Source of the DNA: Phyllobacteriaceae bacterium
GTDB lineage: Bacteria; Pseudomonadota; Alphaproteobacteria; Rhizobiales; Rhizobiaceae
Direction: 5' to 3'
NCBI GenBank assembly: GCA_024645155.1
Contig: JAHEGF010000002.1
Coordinates: forward strand, 1-43,013
DNA: 43,013 bases
The position numbers were made by a program, and so were the translations under genes. Positions 19,848 to 43,013 of this stretch are shown piece by piece. The notes below the pieces were generated by a model. That model worked only from the letters and a program-made list of their open reading frames with translations. It was not told where the DNA came from and made no database searches. Positions within the stretch are counted from its first letter, which is position 1. Every line of letters begins with the position of its first letter.

Positions 19848-20666
19848 ATGCCGTCACCGACACAGATTTCCGTATCCCAACTTTCCCGCCTGATCGGCAC
19901 GCCGGACGCACCGGCCATTATCGATATTTGCATCGATGATGATTTCGCGCTGGATCCGGCACTCATACCGGGCGCCTTCCGCCATCCTTTCACGGATATC
20001 GAGGCGCTCTTACCGCGCCTTGCGGGCCATAACGCGGTTATCGTCTGCCAGAAAGGCAGGAAAATAAGCGAGGGCGCCGCTGCGCTGCTGAGGACGTACG
20101 GGGTTGCAGCCGAAAGCCTGGAAGGCGGTATGGTTGCTTGGCGTGAAGCAGGAATGGCAGCGGTTCCCTGGTCGTCGTTGGCCCATGCCGGCGGTCAACT
20201 GCCGACGCTTTGGGTCACGCGGCAAAGGCCGAAAATCGATCGCATCGCCTGCCCGTGGCTGATCCGGCGCTTTGTCGATCCGCAGGCGCGGTTCCTGTTT
20301 GTCGCCCCATCGGAAGTTGAAGCTGTGGCGGAGAAATTTGCGGCCATTCCGTTCGATGTTGACGGAGTATTCTGGAGCCATCGCGGTGATTCGTGCACAT
20401 TCGATACCATGGTTGACGAATTCGGTCTTGGCGGCGAAGTGGCGCTGGCGCGCCTTGCAACCATCGTTCGAGGAGCCGACACAAACCGCCATGACCTTGC
20501 TCCACAATGTGCCGGCTTGCTGGCGATGTCGGTCGGTCTGTCGCGCATGTATCGTGACGACCTGGAACAGCTGAAGGCCGGAATTGCCATCTACGACGCC
20601 CTTTACCGATGGTGCCGCGACGGTGTTGACGAGGGGCATGACTGGCCGGCGGGGTCCGGGTCGTGA
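19848..20666 (+). CDS. Rhodanese domain fused to a ChrB C-terminal (chromate-resistance) domain
   Basis: The N-terminal ~110 aa carry a rhodanese active-site loop (VIVCQKGRKIS). The C-terminal block WVTRQRPKIDRIACPWLIRRFVDP is typical of the ChrB_C/Chrome_Resist domain. Confidence 0.8.
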   Translation: MPSPTQISVSQLSRLIGTPDAPAIIDICIDDDFALDPALIPGAFRHPFTDIEALLPRLAGHNAVIVCQKGRKISEGAAALLRTYGVAAESLEGGMVAWREAGMAAVPWSSLAHAGGQLPTLWVTRQRPKIDRIACPWLIRRFVDPQARFLFVAPSEVEAVAEKFAAIPFDVDGVFWSHRGDSCTFDTMVDEFGLGGEVALARLATIVRGADTNRHDLAPQCAGLLAMSVGLSRMYRDDLEQLKAGIAIYDALYRWCRDGVDEGHDWPAGSGS

Positions 20667-21967
20667 CTGCAATGGCCGACGCTGGCAAGGGGGCAGACGA
20701 GTTGCCGTTTCCCGGCTTTGCAGAGGCATTGAAAGTGTGGGCGCGTATTGGCGTATTGTCGTTTGGCGGGCCGGCAGCGCAGATCGCATTGATGCATCGT
20801 GAGATTGTCGAAGAACGCAAGTGGCTGTCGGAGAAACAGTATCTCGATGCGCTGGGATTTTGCATGCTTCTGCCCGGACCCGAAGCAATGCAGCTTGCGA
20901 CCTTCGCGGGCTGGCGGCTGCATGGTGTCCGTGGTGGACTGGCCGCCGGATTGCTGTTCGTCCTGCCCGGCGCGGCAATGGTGCTGTTGCTGGCAGCGCT
21001 TTACTCCGCATTTGGCAATGTACCGGTTGTTGATGCGGTGTTTCTTGGCATCAAGGCAGCAGTTGTCGTTGTCGTGCTCGAAGCGCTGCTGCGGGTTTCA
21101 AAACGGGCACTTGGGACCCTTTCTCACCGGCTCATCGCATTTGCTGCCTTTGCCGCGATATTCTTTTTTTCCATACCGTTTCCGGTTGTCGTCGCGGTTG
21201 CAGCATTGTGGGGCTTTATCGCGGAGCCTTTGGGGGTACAGGAGTTGGCGCAACCGGCTGCCGTGCGCCATGACTGGCGAAAGACGGCAGTCACGGTTCT
21301 GAGCTGGCTGGTGATCTGGTGGGCACCGCTGCTGCTTCTTTTGTTGTCACCTGCAACCGGACTTCTGTGGGAACTCGGAATGTTTTTCTCCAAGCTTGCG
21401 GTCGTGACATTCGGCGGCGCCTACGCTGTACTCGCCTACATGGCGCAGGATGTCGTCAACGCGCATGGATGGCTTAGCGCCGGTGAGATGCTCGACGGGC
21501 TGGGGCTTGCGGAAACCACCATGGGGCCGCTCATTTTGGTGACCGAGTTTGTCGGATTTCTCGCCGCGCACAAACACGGTGGCTTTGCGCTCGGGCTGGC
21601 GGCGGCGGCGGTCACGTTGTGGGCAACATTTGCGCCGTGTTTTCTGTGGATTTTCGCGGGCGCGCCCTACATTGACTGGATCGGAACACAGCCGCGGCTG
21701 CGTGGTGCGCTATCGGCCATAACTGCAGCCGTAGTCGGCGTGATACTCAATCTGGCAATCTGGTTTGCGATTCACGTGTTCTTTGCGAGAATTGCCGATA
21801 TCGACAATAGTTTGCTCCACTTCCCGATGCCCGAACCGACCAGCCTCGATTGGCGGGTCGTGGCGATGTTTGCGGTTTCGGCATTGCTGCTGTTCCGCTT
21901 TCACTGGGGGATAGCTGGCGTGCTTTCAGTGGCAGGCATGCTTGGTGCCCTGACTGCGCTCTTGTGA
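20663..21967 (+). CDS. chrA: Chromate ion transporter (CHR family, two-domain)
   Basis: 434-aa polytopic ORF with FGGPAAQIALMHRE..W and a second FGGAYAVLAYM repeat. The GTG start overlaps the upstream TGA (GTGA). An alternative start is the ATG at 20672. Confidence 0.9.
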   Translation: MTAMADAGKGADELPFPGFAEALKVWARIGVLSFGGPAAQIALMHREIVEERKWLSEKQYLDALGFCMLLPGPEAMQLATFAGWRLHGVRGGLAAGLLFVLPGAAMVLLLAALYSAFGNVPVVDAVFLGIKAAVVVVVLEALLRVSKRALGTLSHRLIAFAAFAAIFFFSIPFPVVVAVAALWGFIAEPLGVQELAQPAAVRHDWRKTAVTVLSWLVIWWAPLLLLLLSPATGLLWELGMFFSKLAVVTFGGAYAVLAYMAQDVVNAHGWLSAGEMLDGLGLAETTMGPLILVTEFVGFLAAHKHGGFALGLAAAAVTLWATFAPCFLWIFAGAPYIDWIGTQPRLRGALSAITAAVVGVILNLAIWFAIHVFFARIADIDNSLLHFPMPEPTSLDWRVVAMFAVSALLLFRFHWGIAGVLSVAGMLGALTALL

Positions 21968-37078: not shown

Positions 37079-37627
37079 CTAACCCCGGGTTTCAGAAATG
37101 GATTCGGCGGTGCCATGTGCCTCCAGATGCGCTTTGATCACCTTGAGACCGTTCGCAAGATTGCGTTTCCAGTCGAGTGTTACAAACAGCTGTAACAGGG
37201 GACGGGCAATGGCATTGCGGGGATGAAATCCATAGTCCCAAACGATCCGGCAATTGCCGCCTTCCGGGACTGCCTGCATAGTTGATACCGCGTAATCGGA
37301 CAGCAGGCGAACCGGGCTGGTGTAGGCCCAGGGCTGGTATCTGTAGGATGCGGGCAGGTTGGTTTCAAGTATCCGTTCAAGTGATGTCGTTCCGTCCTTG
37401 AAGAAGATCTTGCGGCAGGCTCCAGCCTTGCCCCATTCTGGCCCGGAGACAGGCTCGGTACCTGTAATCGGCGGAACGATGAGTGTGCCGAGCATAAAGT
37501 TCTCAATCGGCTCGAACATGTACCAGTCGAAAAATGTTTTGGCCGGAATGGCGATTACGGTCTCGACCCTGCACCTGGCGTAATTTTCGTCGTGGGTGTC
37601 GGGATCCGGTGGCGATGAATGCTTCAT
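37079..37627 (-). CDS. SRPBCC (START/Bet v1-like) fold protein, a putative hydrophobic-ligand binder
   Basis: 182 aa. The alternating beta/long C-terminal helix pattern and length fit SRPBCC/polyketide-cyclase-like proteins. The call is from memory. No RBS is visible before the ATG. Confidence 0.55.
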   Translation of the reverse strand: MKHSSPPDPDTHDENYARCRVETVIAIPAKTFFDWYMFEPIENFMLGTLIVPPITGTEPVSGPEWGKAGACRKIFFKDGTTSLERILETNLPASYRYQPWAYTSPVRLLSDYAVSTMQAVPEGGNCRIVWDYGFHPRNAIARPLLQLFVTLDWKRNLANGLKVIKAHLEAHGTAESISETRG

Positions 37628-37691: not shown

Positions 37692-40079
37692 TTACACGGC
37701 TTTTTTCAGTTCCTGGATTTCAGGCGCCGAAGCAATTTGCTTGTCGGCAATAAAGCTCTTGAGCAGATAAGCGGCGACCGCGGTCTGATCCATCGGTTTG
37801 GAGAAAAAGAACCCCTGCAACTGGTTGCACGCGATTTCGCTGAGAAACTTGGCCTGTTCCGGCGTTTCCACGCCTTCCGCTGTGACGGTCATCTGCAGTG
37901 TCTGGCCAAGCGATGCTATGGTTCTCAGAATATCTTGAGCGACGAGGTCTTCGGAAGATGCCATGACAAAGGACCGGTCGATCTTGATCTTGTCGAAGGG
38001 GAACTTCAACAGATATGACAGGCTCGAATAGCCGGTACCGAAATCATCAAGCGCGATGTTTACGCCGATTTTCTTGAGGCCCGAAAGGCGATCACGGACT
38101 TCCTCCTGATTTTTGATCAGCAGGCTTTCAGTCACCTCTATTTCGAGGCAATGAGCGGGCAGTCCGCTTTCCTTCAGTGCCGATGATACAGTTTCAACGA
38201 TGTCGGATGACTGAAAGTGCCTTGCAGACAGATTGACCGCGACAGTAAGGTCCTCCGTCCAAGTTGCGGCAATGCGGCAGGCCTCGCGCACCGTCCAATC
38301 GCCGATCTCACATATCATGCCACCCAGTTCGGCGATCGGGATGAATTCCGAAGGCGTAACGATGCCGCGAATCGGATGGTTCCAACGTATCAGCGCCTCA
38401 AAGCCCATCGGTTTTTGGCTGTCGGCGCCAATCAAAGGCTGGAAGTACAGCTCCAGTTCGCCGTTTTCCAGTGCCTTGCGCAATTCGGATTCGAGCATCC
38501 GCTTTTCGCGCAGATCGGTGTCCATCCGCGATTCAAAGAAGCAATGCAGACCGCGGCCTTCAGCCTTGGCGCGGTAAAGCGCCAAATCCGCATTTCGCAA
38601 AAGCTGATCGGGACGCGTACCGTTGATCGGTGCAATGGCAATACCAATACTGATGCCTATCAGGACCGTTTCGCCGTCGATTTCATAAGGTTTGCTGACT
38701 TCCGCAATCAATCTCTTTGCTATTTTTTCCAGCTCTTCGGCGGTCGCATCGTCCTGGATAATGATGGCGAACTCGTCCCCGCCAAGGCGGGCGATATTTT
38801 CCGTTCCGCGTAATGTCGTGCGTATCCTCTTGGCCACGGCACTCAGCAAGCTGTCGCCAACCAGGTGCCCGCGTGTATCGTTGACAGATTTGAAGTTGTC
38901 GAGATCCATATACAATACCGCAAACGGTGAGCCGTAGCGCTCCAGTCTTGCGACACAATGCTTGAGGTGTTCGGTGAATTTTGCACGGTTTAATAGACCG
39001 GTAAGCGGATCATTGTGCGCAAGGAAACTGATTTGGCGCTCGGCAAATTTCTTCGCCGTGATGTCTGATGCGGTGCCGACGTATCCGCGGTAAGACCCGC
39101 TTTCTGAATATATCGGCTTGCCGGTCAGCCGCCACCATTGTTCCTGGTCCCCAACGAGAACCCGGATCTCGAGGTCCTTGAATGTCTTCTGGTCTTCGAT
39201 CGAGAACCTGATTTCTTCAAGTGAAGAGTTGTTTCGGCCTGCAATGGTTGCCAGAAATTCGATAAAATCCTGCCCTTCGAGCGACGCGTCGGAGTGGGTG
39301 ACGCTTGCAAACCGGTCGGATACGCGGTCGATTTTTCCCTCGGAATCGAATTCCCAAAGCCAGTCGCTGGCGTTTTCCTCGAATTCCTTCAGCAGCAGCC
39401 CGATGATATCCCGCTGCGAGCGTACGGTTGCTTCCTGCTTAAAATTGCTGACGAAATCAAAGGACCTGCGGACCGATTCCGTGAAAATGATCACCGAGAA
39501 GCATGCAAGAAGCGAAAGAGCAGCGATGGTGTCTGTCATGCTCGGCAAGGCATATGCTGCAAATATTCCGCCAGCTATCGTAGGGAGCAGAAACGCGATC
39601 AACGCCTGAGGCAATATGGTCAGCATAAATCCGGTGACACAGATGATACCGGTATATTCGACTGCGCCAATCATACGGATCGAGGCTGTTGCCTGTGGCA
39701 TCACCAGTATCGGCATCAATCCCCAGAAAAGGCCGAAAATAAGGGAGTTGGCGATCAGTTTGTTCAACCGGTCAGGTGTCGCTGAACGGTGAACCGGCAG
39801 TTTGCGCCTGTCCAGCCAAACAACCAGCCTGCAAACCGCGAAAAAGTTCAACGCGCCGGCCCACAGCACGATCATGTTGAAATTTTCCATATCCACACAA
39901 ATTGCCAGCAATATCAACGTTATAGCGATATTGCCCAATGCCAATGCCGGAGTGGCGTCAGATACCGCCGAAATCTGCTTTGCATATAATACCGAAAGCA
40001 TATCATCATCGACTCTGTCGAGTGCGTCCGATGGAGCCGCAATTGCAGTATCAGCGTTTTTTTCTGGTTCCGGATGCAT
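37692..40079 (-). CDS. Membrane sensor (about 6 TM) - PAS - GGDEF - EAL protein (c-di-GMP turnover)
   Basis: About six hydrophobic helices in the first ~205 aa, then a PAS-like segment. Intact GGDEF (RLGGDEFAIII), and EAL motifs EALIRW, DDFGTGYSSLSYL and KIDRSF. An AGGAAG RBS precedes the start. Confidence 0.9.
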   Translation of the reverse strand: MHPEPEKNADTAIAAPSDALDRVDDDMLSVLYAKQISAVSDATPALALGNIAITLILLAICVDMENFNMIVLWAGALNFFAVCRLVVWLDRRKLPVHRSATPDRLNKLIANSLIFGLFWGLMPILVMPQATASIRMIGAVEYTGIICVTGFMLTILPQALIAFLLPTIAGGIFAAYALPSMTDTIAALSLLACFSVIIFTESVRRSFDFVSNFKQEATVRSQRDIIGLLLKEFEENASDWLWEFDSEGKIDRVSDRFASVTHSDASLEGQDFIEFLATIAGRNNSSLEEIRFSIEDQKTFKDLEIRVLVGDQEQWWRLTGKPIYSESGSYRGYVGTASDITAKKFAERQISFLAHNDPLTGLLNRAKFTEHLKHCVARLERYGSPFAVLYMDLDNFKSVNDTRGHLVGDSLLSAVAKRIRTTLRGTENIARLGGDEFAIIIQDDATAEELEKIAKRLIAEVSKPYEIDGETVLIGISIGIAIAPINGTRPDQLLRNADLALYRAKAEGRGLHCFFESRMDTDLREKRMLESELRKALENGELELYFQPLIGADSQKPMGFEALIRWNHPIRGIVTPSEFIPIAELGGMICEIGDWTVREACRIAATWTEDLTVAVNLSARHFQSSDIVETVSSALKESGLPAHCLEIEVTESLLIKNQEEVRDRLSGLKKIGVNIALDDFGTGYSSLSYLLKFPFDKIKIDRSFVMASSEDLVAQDILRTIASLGQTLQMTVTAEGVETPEQAKFLSEIACNQLQGFFFSKPMDQTAVAAYLLKSFIADKQIASAPEIQELKKAV

Positions 40080-40120
40080 GTAACCAACTTCCTGCTTATT
40101 TACCTGACAGGTTAGTGGCA

Positions 40121-40142
40121 GTTTATGGATTTGAGGTTTATG
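40121..40142 (+). repeat. Direct repeat GTTTATG x2 (40121-40127 and 40136-40142, 15-bp period) in the AT-rich divergent control region
   Basis: Read directly. Confidence 0.3.
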
Positions 40143-40335
40143 AAAAGCGCCTGATGCCGGATCAACCGCGGTATCTCTGTGTTTGGTAACTGAAGTATGA
40201 ATTGCGTGCTCTTGTGCTGTTGAAATTTTTTCCTTGAAGATGCCAGGTTATCGATGTGTAAACCTAATCGTTTAAAAACATTTTCAGACATCGCTGATAA
40301 CCATGCTCCAAACAAAAAACATACAGGAGCAGGTA

Positions 40336-41718
40336 ATGAGCAGGAACAAGGCAACAGGACATTCTGATGGCAATGACATACCAGAAGCCGCATTAACCGG
40401 AAGTCTTCGTGACTTCCGTGCCCCAACGGGTACAGACCTGCTTGGCCGCACAGAGGGTTTTTTCAAATGGCAGGACCTTCGCCGTAAAAACGGCCTGTGG
40501 CCTTACACGCGCTCTACTGCTACCGCCCCGAAATCGCACTGCACCGCAAAAAGCGATGCCGGTGAAAACATGCATGGCGTCAATTTTGCCTCGCAAGACT
40601 ATCTCAGCCTGTCCTCGCACCCTGAAATAAAGCAGGCTGCAATGGAGGCGATTGAAGAATATGGCGTTCACAGTGCCGGGTCAGCCGTGCTGCTGGGGAA
40701 TACGCGTCATTCGCTGAGACTTGAAAGAACGATATCGGAATTCATCGGCGGCCACGACGTCGTACTTTATCCGTCCGGCTGGTCAGCGGGCTTTGCAGCC
40801 GTTCAAGGGTTTGTTCGTCCGAATGACCACGTTGTCCTGGATGTCCTGGCACACTCCTGCCTTCAGGAAGGTGCCCGCGCGGCAACCCAGAACATCTATT
40901 TTCATGGCCACCTCAATGTTGATGGGTTGCGCAGACGGTTGCAGCGGATCAGGGCAAATGACAAGGAGAACGGCATTCTGGTGGTAACGGAAAGCCTGTT
41001 TTCGATGCATGCCGATACGCCGGATATTGCCGCTCTGCGTGAAGCCTGCGATGAATTCGACGCGAAATTGCTGGTCGATTGCGCCCATGATTTCGGTTGC
41101 ATCGGTGAGGATGGTCTTGGCCATATCGGGCTGCAAGGGATGATGGACAAAGTCGACATCATCATTGGCAGTTTCTCGAAAACCTTCGCTTCGAATGGCG
41201 GCTTTATCGCGATCAAATCGCGCGGTGTAGCCGAGTATCTGAAATGTTACAGCGCGACACATACATTTTCGAACGCATTGTCGCCGGCGCAGGCGGCGTC
41301 GGTTCTTGCCGCATTCAAGATCGTGATGTCAGCGGAAGGTGCGGAGCGCCGGCGCGCCCTGATGGACAATATTCTTTACATGCGCAGTGAGTTTGCGAAA
41401 TACGACATGGAAGCATTGGGTGACCCGTCGCCGATTGTACCGGTGCGGATCGGAGCCGAAGGCCTCGCCCGCATAGCTTCACGCGAGCTGGTCAAGCTGA
41501 ACGCCATTGTAAATCTCGTCGAATATCCGGCAGTTCCGCAAGGCGGTGCGCGATTCCGGATTCAGGCCATGGCGGATCACAGCCGCGGCGATGTCGATGA
41601 ACTGGTGGCAGCGACGCGAAAGGCAATGAAGATGGCGGATCTCGAATTCCGTATCATCCGTGAAAGCGGCAGCCTTTCACCGCAGAAAACAATTGGCGGG
41701 AACCGGCAGGCTGCCTAA
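40336..41718 (+). CDS. PLP-dependent alpha-oxoamine synthase family enzyme (BioF/Kbl/Spt/CqsA superfamily; possibly CqsA/LqsA-like)
   Basis: NFASQDYLSLSSHP, SGWSAGF, LAHSCLQEGAR, VDCAHDFG and the PLP-lysine context GSFSKTFASNGGF. The ATG at 40336 is preceded by CAGGAGCAGG. About 90 aa of N-terminal sequence precede the conserved core. Confidence 0.85.
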   Translation: MSRNKATGHSDGNDIPEAALTGSLRDFRAPTGTDLLGRTEGFFKWQDLRRKNGLWPYTRSTATAPKSHCTAKSDAGENMHGVNFASQDYLSLSSHPEIKQAAMEAIEEYGVHSAGSAVLLGNTRHSLRLERTISEFIGGHDVVLYPSGWSAGFAAVQGFVRPNDHVVLDVLAHSCLQEGARAATQNIYFHGHLNVDGLRRRLQRIRANDKENGILVVTESLFSMHADTPDIAALREACDEFDAKLLVDCAHDFGCIGEDGLGHIGLQGMMDKVDIIIGSFSKTFASNGGFIAIKSRGVAEYLKCYSATHTFSNALSPAQAASVLAAFKIVMSAEGAERRRALMDNILYMRSEFAKYDMEALGDPSPIVPVRIGAEGLARIASRELVKLNAIVNLVEYPAVPQGGARFRIQAMADHSRGDVDELVAATRKAMKMADLEFRIIRESGSLSPQKTIGGNRQAA

Positions 41719-41742: not shown

Positions 41743-42141
41743 ATGACATATGACCGGATACCCAGGCTCCTGGCAGTCGATGACGACCCGGATTCTGCGG
41801 AGCTCATCGTCCGTGTGGCGGAACGGTGCGGATATGAAGCATTTGCAACTTCGGATTCCCGAGGCGTCGTTAGCCTGACCAAGGCCCTTGATCCCGATAT
41901 CCTGACCGTCGACATCTGCATGCCGAACATAGACGCCGTTGAGCTGTTTCATCTTTTGAGCGAAGCAGGAATCAACGCCCAGATCCTGATCGTCAGTGGC
42001 CAGGACGAAACAGTGCTTGAAGATACCCGCCAGATAGCGCTGAAACTGGGCCTTAAAGTTCCCTACACTCAACAAAAACCGCTGGATTTCCAGCGGTTAA
42101 GGGAGATGTTCGTAGCGCCTGAAGTTCAGGCGGCGTGCTGA
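41743..42141 (+). CDS. Stand-alone receiver-domain response regulator (CheY-like, no output domain)
   Basis: Acidic pocket LLAVDDD, phospho-acceptor context ILTVDICMP, conserved Ser (IVSGQ) and Lys (QQKP). 132 aa. The ATG is 24 nt after the synthase stop, with an AGGGA RBS. Confidence 0.85.
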   Translation: MTYDRIPRLLAVDDDPDSAELIVRVAERCGYEAFATSDSRGVVSLTKALDPDILTVDICMPNIDAVELFHLLSEAGINAQILIVSGQDETVLEDTRQIALKLGLKVPYTQQKPLDFQRLREMFVAPEVQAAC

Positions 42142-42190: not shown

Positions 42191-42796
42191 CTAGAATTTT
42201 ACACCGACCCTCATGGTCAAGGTGTCGATCCCCGCATCAATCAGGGTACCGTCAAAAGTATCGTAGAACTGGTGGCTGTAATTTGCCCCGACGGTGAGGT
42301 AATCGTTGACCATGTAGTCGACACCGGCACCTGCAACGATGCCCCAGTCATCAAGGCCGATGCTGGTCGTCGCGTAAACGGCACCGAGATGGGCAGTTGC
42401 CAGCCATTGATCATATGCAACACCCGCCTTTGCCTTCATCATGTAGGCATCTTCGGTATCGATCGGGAATCCCTCGAAGTTTATTTTCTGGCGCTGGTAT
42501 TCAGCTTCGACTCCGCCGACAAACATGCCGTACTGGTATAAATAACCGGCATAGACACCGAAGACAAAATCGTCTCCCTTTGACCGCAACGGAGGAACAA
42601 AGGACCGGTCGACATCGCGAAGCCAGCCGTAACCGCCTGACACGCCGACATAGGCACCAGTCCAGCTTCCAAATCTTTCGGGATTTGGTGCTTCGTATTC
42701 GGGAGCTTCATCGGCACGTATTATCGCGGGATCAGCTGCAAGCGCCGGTGAAACAAACAGTACCGAGGCGCATAAAATTGCTCCGATTTTTCCCAT
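42191..42796 (-). CDS. Outer-membrane beta-barrel protein (Omp25/Omp31/RopB-like porin family)
   Basis: Signal peptide MGKIGAILCASVLFVSPALA, alternating aromatic/Gly-rich strands (GAYVGVSGGYGW) and a C-terminal ...MRVGVKF ending in Phe. An AGGAGA RBS precedes the ATG at 42796. Confidence 0.8.
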   Translation of the reverse strand: MGKIGAILCASVLFVSPALAADPAIIRADEAPEYEAPNPERFGSWTGAYVGVSGGYGWLRDVDRSFVPPLRSKGDDFVFGVYAGYLYQYGMFVGGVEAEYQRQKINFEGFPIDTEDAYMMKAKAGVAYDQWLATAHLGAVYATTSIGLDDWGIVAGAGVDYMVNDYLTVGANYSHQFYDTFDGTLIDAGIDTLTMRVGVKF

Positions 42797-43013
42797 TTTG
42801 TTATTCTCCTGGATCAATGTACAGGAGGAATTTACCGAGTTATGGTTATCCAACGGTTAATAAGGATGAGATTGTTAACCATGATACTTAAGTCGGAGAC
42901 TGAGGCGGAAATCGGTGTCAGCGCCATGATCTTATTTGCTTCACGACAATTTGGGCAATGCGTGGCCAAACCAGGCACGCCACGATCCGTCATTGACAGC
43001 TAGAATGTCGTAT

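Follow-up and report, generated by a model that had tools for sequence, protein, structure and literature searches.

To our knowledge, autoinducers derived from alpha-oxoamine synthases (AOS) are known only from the Cqs, Lqs and Jqs systems of Gamma- and Betaproteobacteria. In the CqsA/CqsS system of Vibrio and the LqsA/LqsS/LqsT/LqsR system of Legionella (PMC3376566), a stand-alone AOS dependent on pyridoxal phosphate (PLP) is paired with a histidine kinase whose six-helix sensor has no large periplasmic part; the kinases can be hybrid (CqsS-like) or non-hybrid and paired (LqsS/LqsT-like), and a receiver is encoded in the cluster. All these features recur among the loci described here, which we analysed starting from a metagenome-assembled genome (MAG) of a Phyllobacteriaceae bacterium (Alphaproteobacteria; GCA_024645155.1). 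The window, i.e. the whole stretch of 43,013 nucleotides that was analysed, corresponds to a complete contig (JAHEGF010000002.1, here C406) of this 441-contig MAG, which is 93.5% complete, and it carries an AOS gene (P0001) at positions 40336-41718 of the forward strand. The original prediction, made from the letters of this stretch, had placed the motifs of the encoded protein closer to those of CqsA-type autoinducer synthases than to those of BioF, Kbl, HemA or Spt (serine palmitoyltransferase).

Judging from its sequence and genomic context, this synthase is a strong candidate for the enzyme that makes the signal in a new bacterial signalling system. It is not a member of the CqsA family but probably a functional analogue, which would produce the signal for a dedicated kinase feeding into cyclic di-GMP (c-di-GMP) metabolism. 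Unlike the Cqs and Lqs systems, the synthase belongs to another AOS clade, the kinase sensor has no detectable homology to those of CqsS or LqsS, the conserved output partner is a GGDEF-EAL protein instead of LuxU/LuxO or LqsR, and the carriers are mostly Hyphomicrobiales.

Association of the synthase with a kinase and c-di-GMP enzymes

Related loci show the full organization: a GGDEF-EAL gene diverges from the synthase gene, which is followed on its own strand by the gene of a receiver-only regulator (RR1) and then, on the opposite strand, by the genes of a second receiver (RR2) and of a hybrid histidine kinase, with the gene of an outer-membrane protein coming next in some of them. The full gene set is present in Neomesorhizobium albiziae and in other MAGs, where the outer flanks are unrelated. 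A scan of one genome per species produced 489 relatives of the synthase, and we examined the loci of the best 80 (58-78% identity). Their hosts are Nitratireductor, Neomesorhizobium, Devosia, Roseitalea, Minwuia, Rhizobium cremeum and Pseudaminobacter, together with Bradyrhizobium/Xanthobacteraceae MAGs and a few MAGs labelled Betaproteobacteria. These taxa are absent from the known distribution of lqs/cqs clusters (PMC3376566).

Forty-one of these loci have full context, with at least 6 kb available on each side of the synthase gene. Counting neighbours within 10 kb, a kinase with the same N-terminal sensor domain is encoded in 37 of the 41, RR2 in 34, a GGDEF-EAL homologue in 31 and RR1 in 19, and seven loci carry two kinase paralogues. 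The distance between synthase and kinase genes is short (median 2.2 kb, maximum 3.1 kb), and at least four gene orders occur across the 80 loci, including one in which the synthase gene precedes the kinase gene on the same strand. Twelve of the 80 loci have no kinase gene, and six of these end within 3.4 kb downstream. Synthases of 54-60% identity are found in other arrangements, e.g., kinase-synthase-kinase-REC-GGDEF-EAL on one strand, and in such other architectures the GGDEF-EAL protein is replaced by a REC-GGDEF-EAL protein. One MAG contains two synthase modules about 35 kb apart (L064, CAVSAU010000007.1:227513-248835, and L070, CAVSAU010000007.1:263758-279113), each with its own kinase and with synthases 75-76% identical to the query.

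The association extends to the distribution of the two proteins among genomes. Synthase relatives are present in six of 301 genomes of the order and the kinase sensor domain in five, which are exactly those whose synthase is at least 54% identical to that of the window and which belong to five different taxonomic families (hypergeometric p ~5e-11, ignoring phylogeny). The query of the sensor search was an approximate sequence, 94% identical to the N-terminus of the kinase of the genome, which is sufficient for detecting homologues. In one of the five genomes (G230), synthase and kinase are unlinked, two kinase copies being located on another contig. The synthase gene of this genome (locus L043, C11:4543-8738) lies directly downstream of genes for an HlyD-type membrane-fusion protein and an AcrB-type pump of the RND family, through which a hydrophobic product might be exported. 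Among the synthase-positive genomes, only G515 has no kinase; it harbours the most divergent copy (43% identity), in a locus (L045, C70:6495-12674) that also encodes an Asp/Asn beta-hydroxylase similar to LpxO/OlsC, a flavin monooxygenase, a lipase/thioesterase-like hydrolase and an MFS transporter. The synthase of G515 is probably a lipid-modifying offshoot of the larger AOS group described below.

In the MAG under study, the kinase gene is located on another contig. The last 38 nucleotides of the window (42976-43013) match, without any difference, the end of contig C287 read in reverse; this contig encodes on its minus strand the single copy in this MAG of a hybrid histidine kinase with six transmembrane helices (C287:2456-4366), followed by RR2 (C287:2097-2459, minus strand). 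This kinase is 65% identical over its full length to the kinase of locus L001. The overlap suggests an order in which the synthase and RR1 genes are followed by the outer-membrane protein gene on the opposite strand and, after about 1 kb, by the kinase and RR2 genes on the strand of the synthase gene. Since the end of the window seems to join the kinase-bearing contig, the receiver is probably no orphan.

The first ~215 residues of the kinase, which form its sensor, do not correspond to any Pfam family. An AlphaFold2 model (predicted local distance difference test, pLDDT, of 88.6) shows an N-terminal helix and six transmembrane helices connected by short loops, after which a long helix leads into the DHp domain. 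A fold search of the PDB with the sensor domain gave no significant match (best E-value 0.29, template-modelling (TM) scores of at most 0.32). Homology to the CqsS/LqsS sensors taken from CqsA loci was rejected, the hhalign probability (0.4%) being about that of a reversed-sequence control, as was homology to the six-helix transmembrane domain of the neighbouring GGDEF-EAL protein (probability 0.1%).

A distinct superclade of alpha-oxoamine synthases

The synthase gene encodes 460 amino acids and is translated without stops. Its ATG at 40336 is preceded, at a distance of 6 nucleotides, by a Shine-Dalgarno sequence AGGAG read from the sequence (40325-40329, plus strand); the alternative ATG at 40303, which would give a longer form, lacks a ribosome-binding site, and alignments with homologues begin at residues 1-15 of the shorter one. 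The protein matches the Pfam family Aminotran_1_2 (PF00155, E = 3e-34) and aligns end to end with every AOS model of NCBIfam. The motifs quoted in the original prediction are all in place, SGWSAGF at residues 147-153, LAHSC at 171-175 (His173), VDCAHDFG at 247-254 (Asp248 and His251) and GSFSKTF at 278-284 (Lys282), and the catalytic core is complete as had been claimed: these four catalytic residues and Arg406 are invariant in 27 family members. The AlphaFold2 model (pLDDT 86.5) superposes on Spt and Kbl structures with TM scores of 0.92-0.94, normalised to the target. Both the fold and the catalytic His/Asp/His/Lys/Arg set by which AOS proteins are recognized are thus present in the synthase, which is by prediction an intact, catalytically competent PLP-dependent AOS.

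The terminal extensions turned out to be smaller than supposed. The ~90 residues thought to precede the conserved core mostly correspond to an ordinary AOS N-terminal domain, with a helix at residues 37-51 and three strands in the model; because this domain begins around residues 37-42 in the model and in the alignment with Spt, which starts at residue 42, only ~35 residues are additional. The C-terminal tail does exist, but it comprises ~15-20 poorly conserved residues modelled with low confidence.

The synthase scores below the cut-off of every curated equivalog model of NCBIfam. Its top match is the BioF model TIGR00858 (260.7 bits vs a cut-off of 426); the Kbl models NF005394 and TIGR01822 give 232 and 195 bits (cut-offs 460 and 493), the Spt models NF047600, NF047599 and NF047603 give 225, 206 and 142 bits (cut-offs 500-670, the CFB-type model with 225 bits having a cut-off of 640) and the ALAS model TIGR01821 gives 183 bits (cut-off 338.55). 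The CqsA-type model NF005526 ranks only eighth (176.7 bits vs a cut-off of 428), behind BioF, Kbl, Spt and ALAS models. CqsA also ranked low in other comparisons. A sequence search of the PDB yielded Spt at 185 bits (29-30% identity) and CqsA at 104 bits, the 50 best fold matches of the model were Spt, Kbl, BioF and ALAS structures, with no CqsA chain among them, and in phmmer comparisons the CqsA-type proteins had the lowest scores of the reference groups (70-115 bits, compared with 123-154 for BioF and 116-132 for Spt).

The first rank of the BioF model and the failure to find a canonical BioF in the MAG would fit a divergent housekeeping enzyme, be it BioF, Kbl, ALAS or Spt, a reading that we regard as scarcely credible. 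All cut-offs are missed, and the protein branches outside all four clades with 100% support, so that the placement in a housekeeping clade that would have spoken against the original prediction was not seen. Relatives are restricted to 2% of the genomes of the order (6/301), and G230 has a near-cut-off BioF alongside its synthase. The MAG already encodes its own Kbl (contig C240, 663 bits) as well as ALAS, and since BioB was not found in this genome, there is no biotin pathway for the synthase to serve. No pathway genes lie nearby either: in agreement with the original prediction, Pfam scans of the 17.7-43 kb part of the window (~23 kb upstream of the synthase gene and the remaining 1.3 kb downstream) revealed no genes for biotin synthesis, threonine degradation, haem synthesis or sphingolipid synthesis. 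The narrower idea of a substitute BioF was rejected in view of the missing BioB, the sporadic distribution of the gene and its linkage to signalling genes. The ALAS genes of the MAG are two paralogues (C409:2821-4125, 662 bits, and C322:615-1934, 631 bits on TIGR01821), as in Rhodobacter with hemA and hemT.

The resemblance to CqsA is confined to a few positions. The Vibrio motifs on which it was founded are correct, as the V. cholerae CqsA (PDB 3hqt) reads QSGWNANVGLLQ...FFAHMSLWEGARYA, and the two proteins have in common the SGW motif (Trp149), the serine before the PLP lysine (Ser279) and the xEGAR motif. In our alignment of 101 sequences, the Trp149 column contains Trp in nine and Tyr in four of the 13 CqsA-type proteins, and Phe or Tyr in BioF, Kbl, HemA and Spt. 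Elsewhere in this alignment, the proposed closeness to CqsA does not extend. Met224 and Asp227 (the FSMxxD block) and Arg406 (in the PAVPxGxARxR block) are as in the housekeeping enzymes and unlike CqsA, and Gln87, His112, Gly152, Cys/Val249 and Asp252 are peculiar to the synthase's own clade, being absent from CqsA and housekeeping groups alike; the position of Gln87 is occupied by Asn in every other AOS group. Of the CqsA signatures SGW/Y-x-AN, AH(M/A/T)S-x-WEG, YSTxG(T/S), VDESHSLG and (V/A)SLAK, the synthase retains only the Trp, the Ser before the lysine block and EGAR. YSTxGT, VDESHSLG, SLAK and also PATxKN are absent from it, and a sequence resembling its LAHSC, SHSC, is also read in an alphaproteobacterial BioF.

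The 13 CqsA-type proteins used as references (12 above the cut-off, with 524-684 bits, and one relative below it, all collected from 400 genomes of the phylum) are only 23-28% identical to the synthase. We computed two maximum-likelihood trees, one of 101 rows with the LG+C20 PMSF (posterior mean site frequency) model and a quick search and one of 48 rows with LG+G4 and a careful search. In both, 100% support separates the superclade containing the synthase from every reference family. A long stem leads to the CqsA-type proteins, which are monophyletic (support 100/100); BioF, Kbl and HemA form one clade each, Spt comprises two groups that are not separated by the superclade split, and the kinase-linked synthases are monophyletic (support 97/95). 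In approximately unbiased (AU) tests on the 48-row LG+G4 analysis, a simpler model that is weak with long branches, a clade joining the kinase-linked family with CqsA was rejected (delta lnL 83, p = 1.1e-6), and a tree in which a branch sets CqsA and the complete superclade apart from the rest was not (p = 0.34). The tree was left unrooted because any outgroup aminotransferase would be too distant, and a very deep sister relation between superclade and CqsA is therefore neither shown nor excluded.

A true member of the CqsA/LqsA/JqsA family, making a product like CAI-1 or LAI-1 from S-adenosylmethionine or aminobutyrate and a medium-chain acyl-CoA, would account for the three shared motifs and for an analogous genomic pairing with a kinase of six transmembrane helices, and it could draw on the deep sister relation tolerated by the AU test. 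This alternative is nevertheless very improbable and, in our view, largely refuted. CqsA membership, as originally proposed, is contradicted by the score on NF005526, the pairwise scores, the fold ranking, the tree and the AU test, besides the four missing signatures and the lack of homology between the kinase sensor and those of CqsS/LqsS. Moreover, none of the 16 genomes sampled from the same taxonomic family was found to carry a CqsA-type gene, nor was any of the other listed genomes of the order.

The kinase-linked family of the synthase belongs to a distinct, uncurated superclade of AOS, which includes neither CqsA/LqsA nor BioF/Kbl/HemA/Spt. A search of 1.84 billion cluster representatives uncovered a large group of nearest relatives with 35-53% identity, and none of eight superclade members tested reached a curated cut-off. 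Some members are multi-domain proteins, in which the AOS domain is fused to a cyclic-nucleotide-binding domain (P0134), to fatty acyl-AMP ligase (FAAL), acyl-CoA dehydrogenase and acyl carrier protein (ACP) domains (P0139), to an FAD monooxygenase (P0142), to FAAL-ACP (P0146) or to ACP and a FeeM-type N-acyl amino acid synthase (P0148). Unlike these fusions, the synthase of the window stands alone, but it is 42-48% identical to them over the whole AOS domain, including the N-terminal region, and has the clade signature Q87, H112, W149, G152 and D252 in common with them. In eight of 60 superclade rows of the alignment, the column of Lys282 contains Pro, Arg or Asp, and the stacking histidine is also missing in a few rows; the sequences concerned are fragments that were misaligned or else paralogues without activity.

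A putative signalling module and competing functions

The tight linkage to a kinase, receivers and c-di-GMP enzymes withstands rearrangement, and a logic of the Cqs/Lqs type is therefore the most economical reading of these loci. With somewhat more than even confidence, we consider that the data are best explained by an AOS that provides the biosynthesis in a conserved accessory module for signalling, together with a kinase, receivers and a c-di-GMP output. The idea of a signal synthase rather than a housekeeping enzyme, already put forward in the original prediction, finds strong independent backing in conserved synteny and strict co-occurrence with the kinase, receivers and c-di-GMP enzymes, and not in kinship with CqsA.

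In such a module, the synthase would join a fatty acyl thioester, either acyl-CoA or acyl-ACP, to an amino acid in a decarboxylating condensation, which would yield an alpha-aminoketone of lipid-like character or some derivative of it; the FAAL-ACP fusions of the superclade hint at fatty acyl donors. In the membrane, the product would be recognized by the six-helix sensor domain of the histidine kinase that is inherited along with the synthase, and this kinase would transfer phosphate to RR1 and RR2, both single-domain receivers, or, in other genomes, directly to REC-GGDEF-EAL proteins, c-di-GMP turnover being the putative output. The synthase may be placed upstream of the kinase, and not among its transcriptional targets, because the regulators of the module have no DNA-binding output, because some architectures wire the kinase straight to REC-GGDEF-EAL and because only genomes with the synthase have the sensor domain. 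We infer the substrates, the product, the identity of the kinase ligand with the synthase product, the direction of information flow and any role between cells.

The fuller proposal is more tentative, and we would give it slightly less than an even chance: an undescribed system of autoinducer type in Hyphomicrobiales, spread over at least several hundred species genomes, which would be built like CqsA/CqsS but with an AOS of a different clade, an unrelated sensor, a lipid signal derived from an aminoketone and an output through c-di-GMP. A search of the literature gave no description of this synthase family or module, an absence that is in itself no proof. If the proposal is true, the loci represent a second, independently assembled pair of synthase and receptor, present in soil, plant-associated and marine Alphaproteobacteria. 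It would add a ligand-binding domain of the membrane that is new and would connect directly to c-di-GMP, hence to decisions on biofilm formation and motility. It would also give a first way into the function of a large AOS superclade for which there is neither a curated family model nor a solved structure. Carriers include Devosia, Nitratireductor, Neomesorhizobium, Rhizobium cremeum, Pseudaminobacter and Bradyrhizobium-like MAGs, and some of them can be cultured.

Several observations weigh against a signalling module. All the support for it is computational, and the co-occurrence equally fits a kinase that senses a membrane state set by a lipid made by the synthase; it would also fit a synthase under post-translational control by the receivers. 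Four of the 41 full-context loci have no kinase within 10 kb, and in the MAG itself the kinase gene is off the contig of the window, its adjacency resting on the 38-nucleotide terminal overlap. No tailoring, export or uptake genes are consistently linked to the synthase in the related loci, and the loci examined yielded no Hpt protein of the kind on which hybrid kinases normally depend.

The main rival explanation takes up the first of these points. The synthase would make a lipid that builds or remodels the membrane, for instance a base of sphingoid-like or amino-lipid type, and the kinase with its six transmembrane helices would monitor membrane composition or stress, or feed back on that lipid, in a homeostasis circuit. 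The best matches of the synthase in both sequence and fold are indeed the Spt of Sphingobacterium multivorum (8guh/3a2b) and Sphingomonas (2jg2), its closest solved relatives, with a best TM score of 0.94 to the target. They have the same dimeric AOS fold and catalytic His/Asp/His/Lys, and the acyl donor of the synthase is probably long-chain as well. The FAAL-ACP fusions among superclade relatives point in the same direction, as does the 43%-identical relative of G515, which belongs to a lipid-type cluster with an LpxO/OlsC-type hydroxylase. Multi-transmembrane sensor domains often respond to membrane properties, which we also count in favour of a lipid function. The synthase itself lies outside the Spt clades, with Gln for the Asn of SNDYLGL (Asn100 in Spt) and VDCAHD instead of VD(D/E)AHS, and it is linked to signalling genes instead of sphingolipid genes. 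We find a lipid function of this kind rather unlikely. The reductase, N-acyltransferase and head-group enzymes of lipid synthesis are not linked to it in the kinase-associated loci, and G515 is precisely the synthase-bearing genome without the kinase. In addition, the outputs of the module are c-di-GMP enzymes and bare receivers, not transcription factors able to adjust lipid genes.

Similarly, the assembly-line fusions of the superclade (FAAL-ACP-AOS, the acyl-CoA dehydrogenase megaenzymes, FAD monooxygenase-AOS and ACP-AOS-FeeM) are compatible with an enzyme of secondary metabolism under two-component control, which would contribute to a pyrazine, a pyrrole or an amino-polyketide antibiotic or pigment that is not the ligand of the kinase. 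This explanation appears improbable, since in the kinase-linked family the synthase is the lone biosynthetic gene and is not accompanied by conserved tailoring or resistance genes, the linked regulators have no DNA-binding domains and the sensor domain occurs only where the synthase does. As for BioF and Kbl (E. coli 1bs0 and 1fc4), whose FSMxxD block, PAVPxGxARxR arginine and overall architecture the synthase shares, they differ from it both by their separate clades and by its accessory-gene distribution.

Neighbouring genes and assembly junctions of the window

RR1 is encoded by the gene that follows that of the synthase (41743-42141, plus strand), starting 24 nucleotides after its stop codon. 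It is a receiver-only regulator of 132 amino acids, with an acidic pocket (D13-D15) and Asp57 in the sequence TVDICMP. On the other side, the synthase gene is separated by a divergent intergenic region of 256 bp (40080-40335), which presumably contains both promoters, from the gene of a multi-transmembrane PAS-GGDEF-EAL protein of 795 amino acids (37692-40079, minus strand). The GGDEF (433), EAL (561), DDFGTG (678) and KIDRSF (699) motifs of this protein are intact.

Downstream of RR1, the minus strand encodes a small outer-membrane beta-barrel protein (OMP_b-brl; 42191-42797); an AGGAG precedes the ATG at 42797, its likely start. Its homologues (44-51% identity) adjoin the kinase in a subset of the related loci, and it is a possible accessory part of the module. 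Just downstream of the GGDEF-EAL gene, a protein with the SRPBCC/Polyketide_cyc2 lipid-binding fold is encoded on the minus strand (37079-37627). This protein could bind a hydrophobic ligand; we kept it out of the module because the gene is not conserved at that position in loci L001 and L003, and it is probably not a core part.

At the other end of the window, positions 1-126 match the end of contig C338 in reverse orientation with 99.2% identity, which is probably another assembly junction. The remaining genes identified are unrelated to the synthase. They include a ChrB-ChrA chromate-resistance pair (19848-21967) and, between 17.7 and 30.4 kb, genes encoding a NAPRTase, a TylF-like methyltransferase, an AsnC regulator, a Zn alcohol dehydrogenase, an enzyme of the proline-racemase family, a PALP enzyme and a TRAP transporter.

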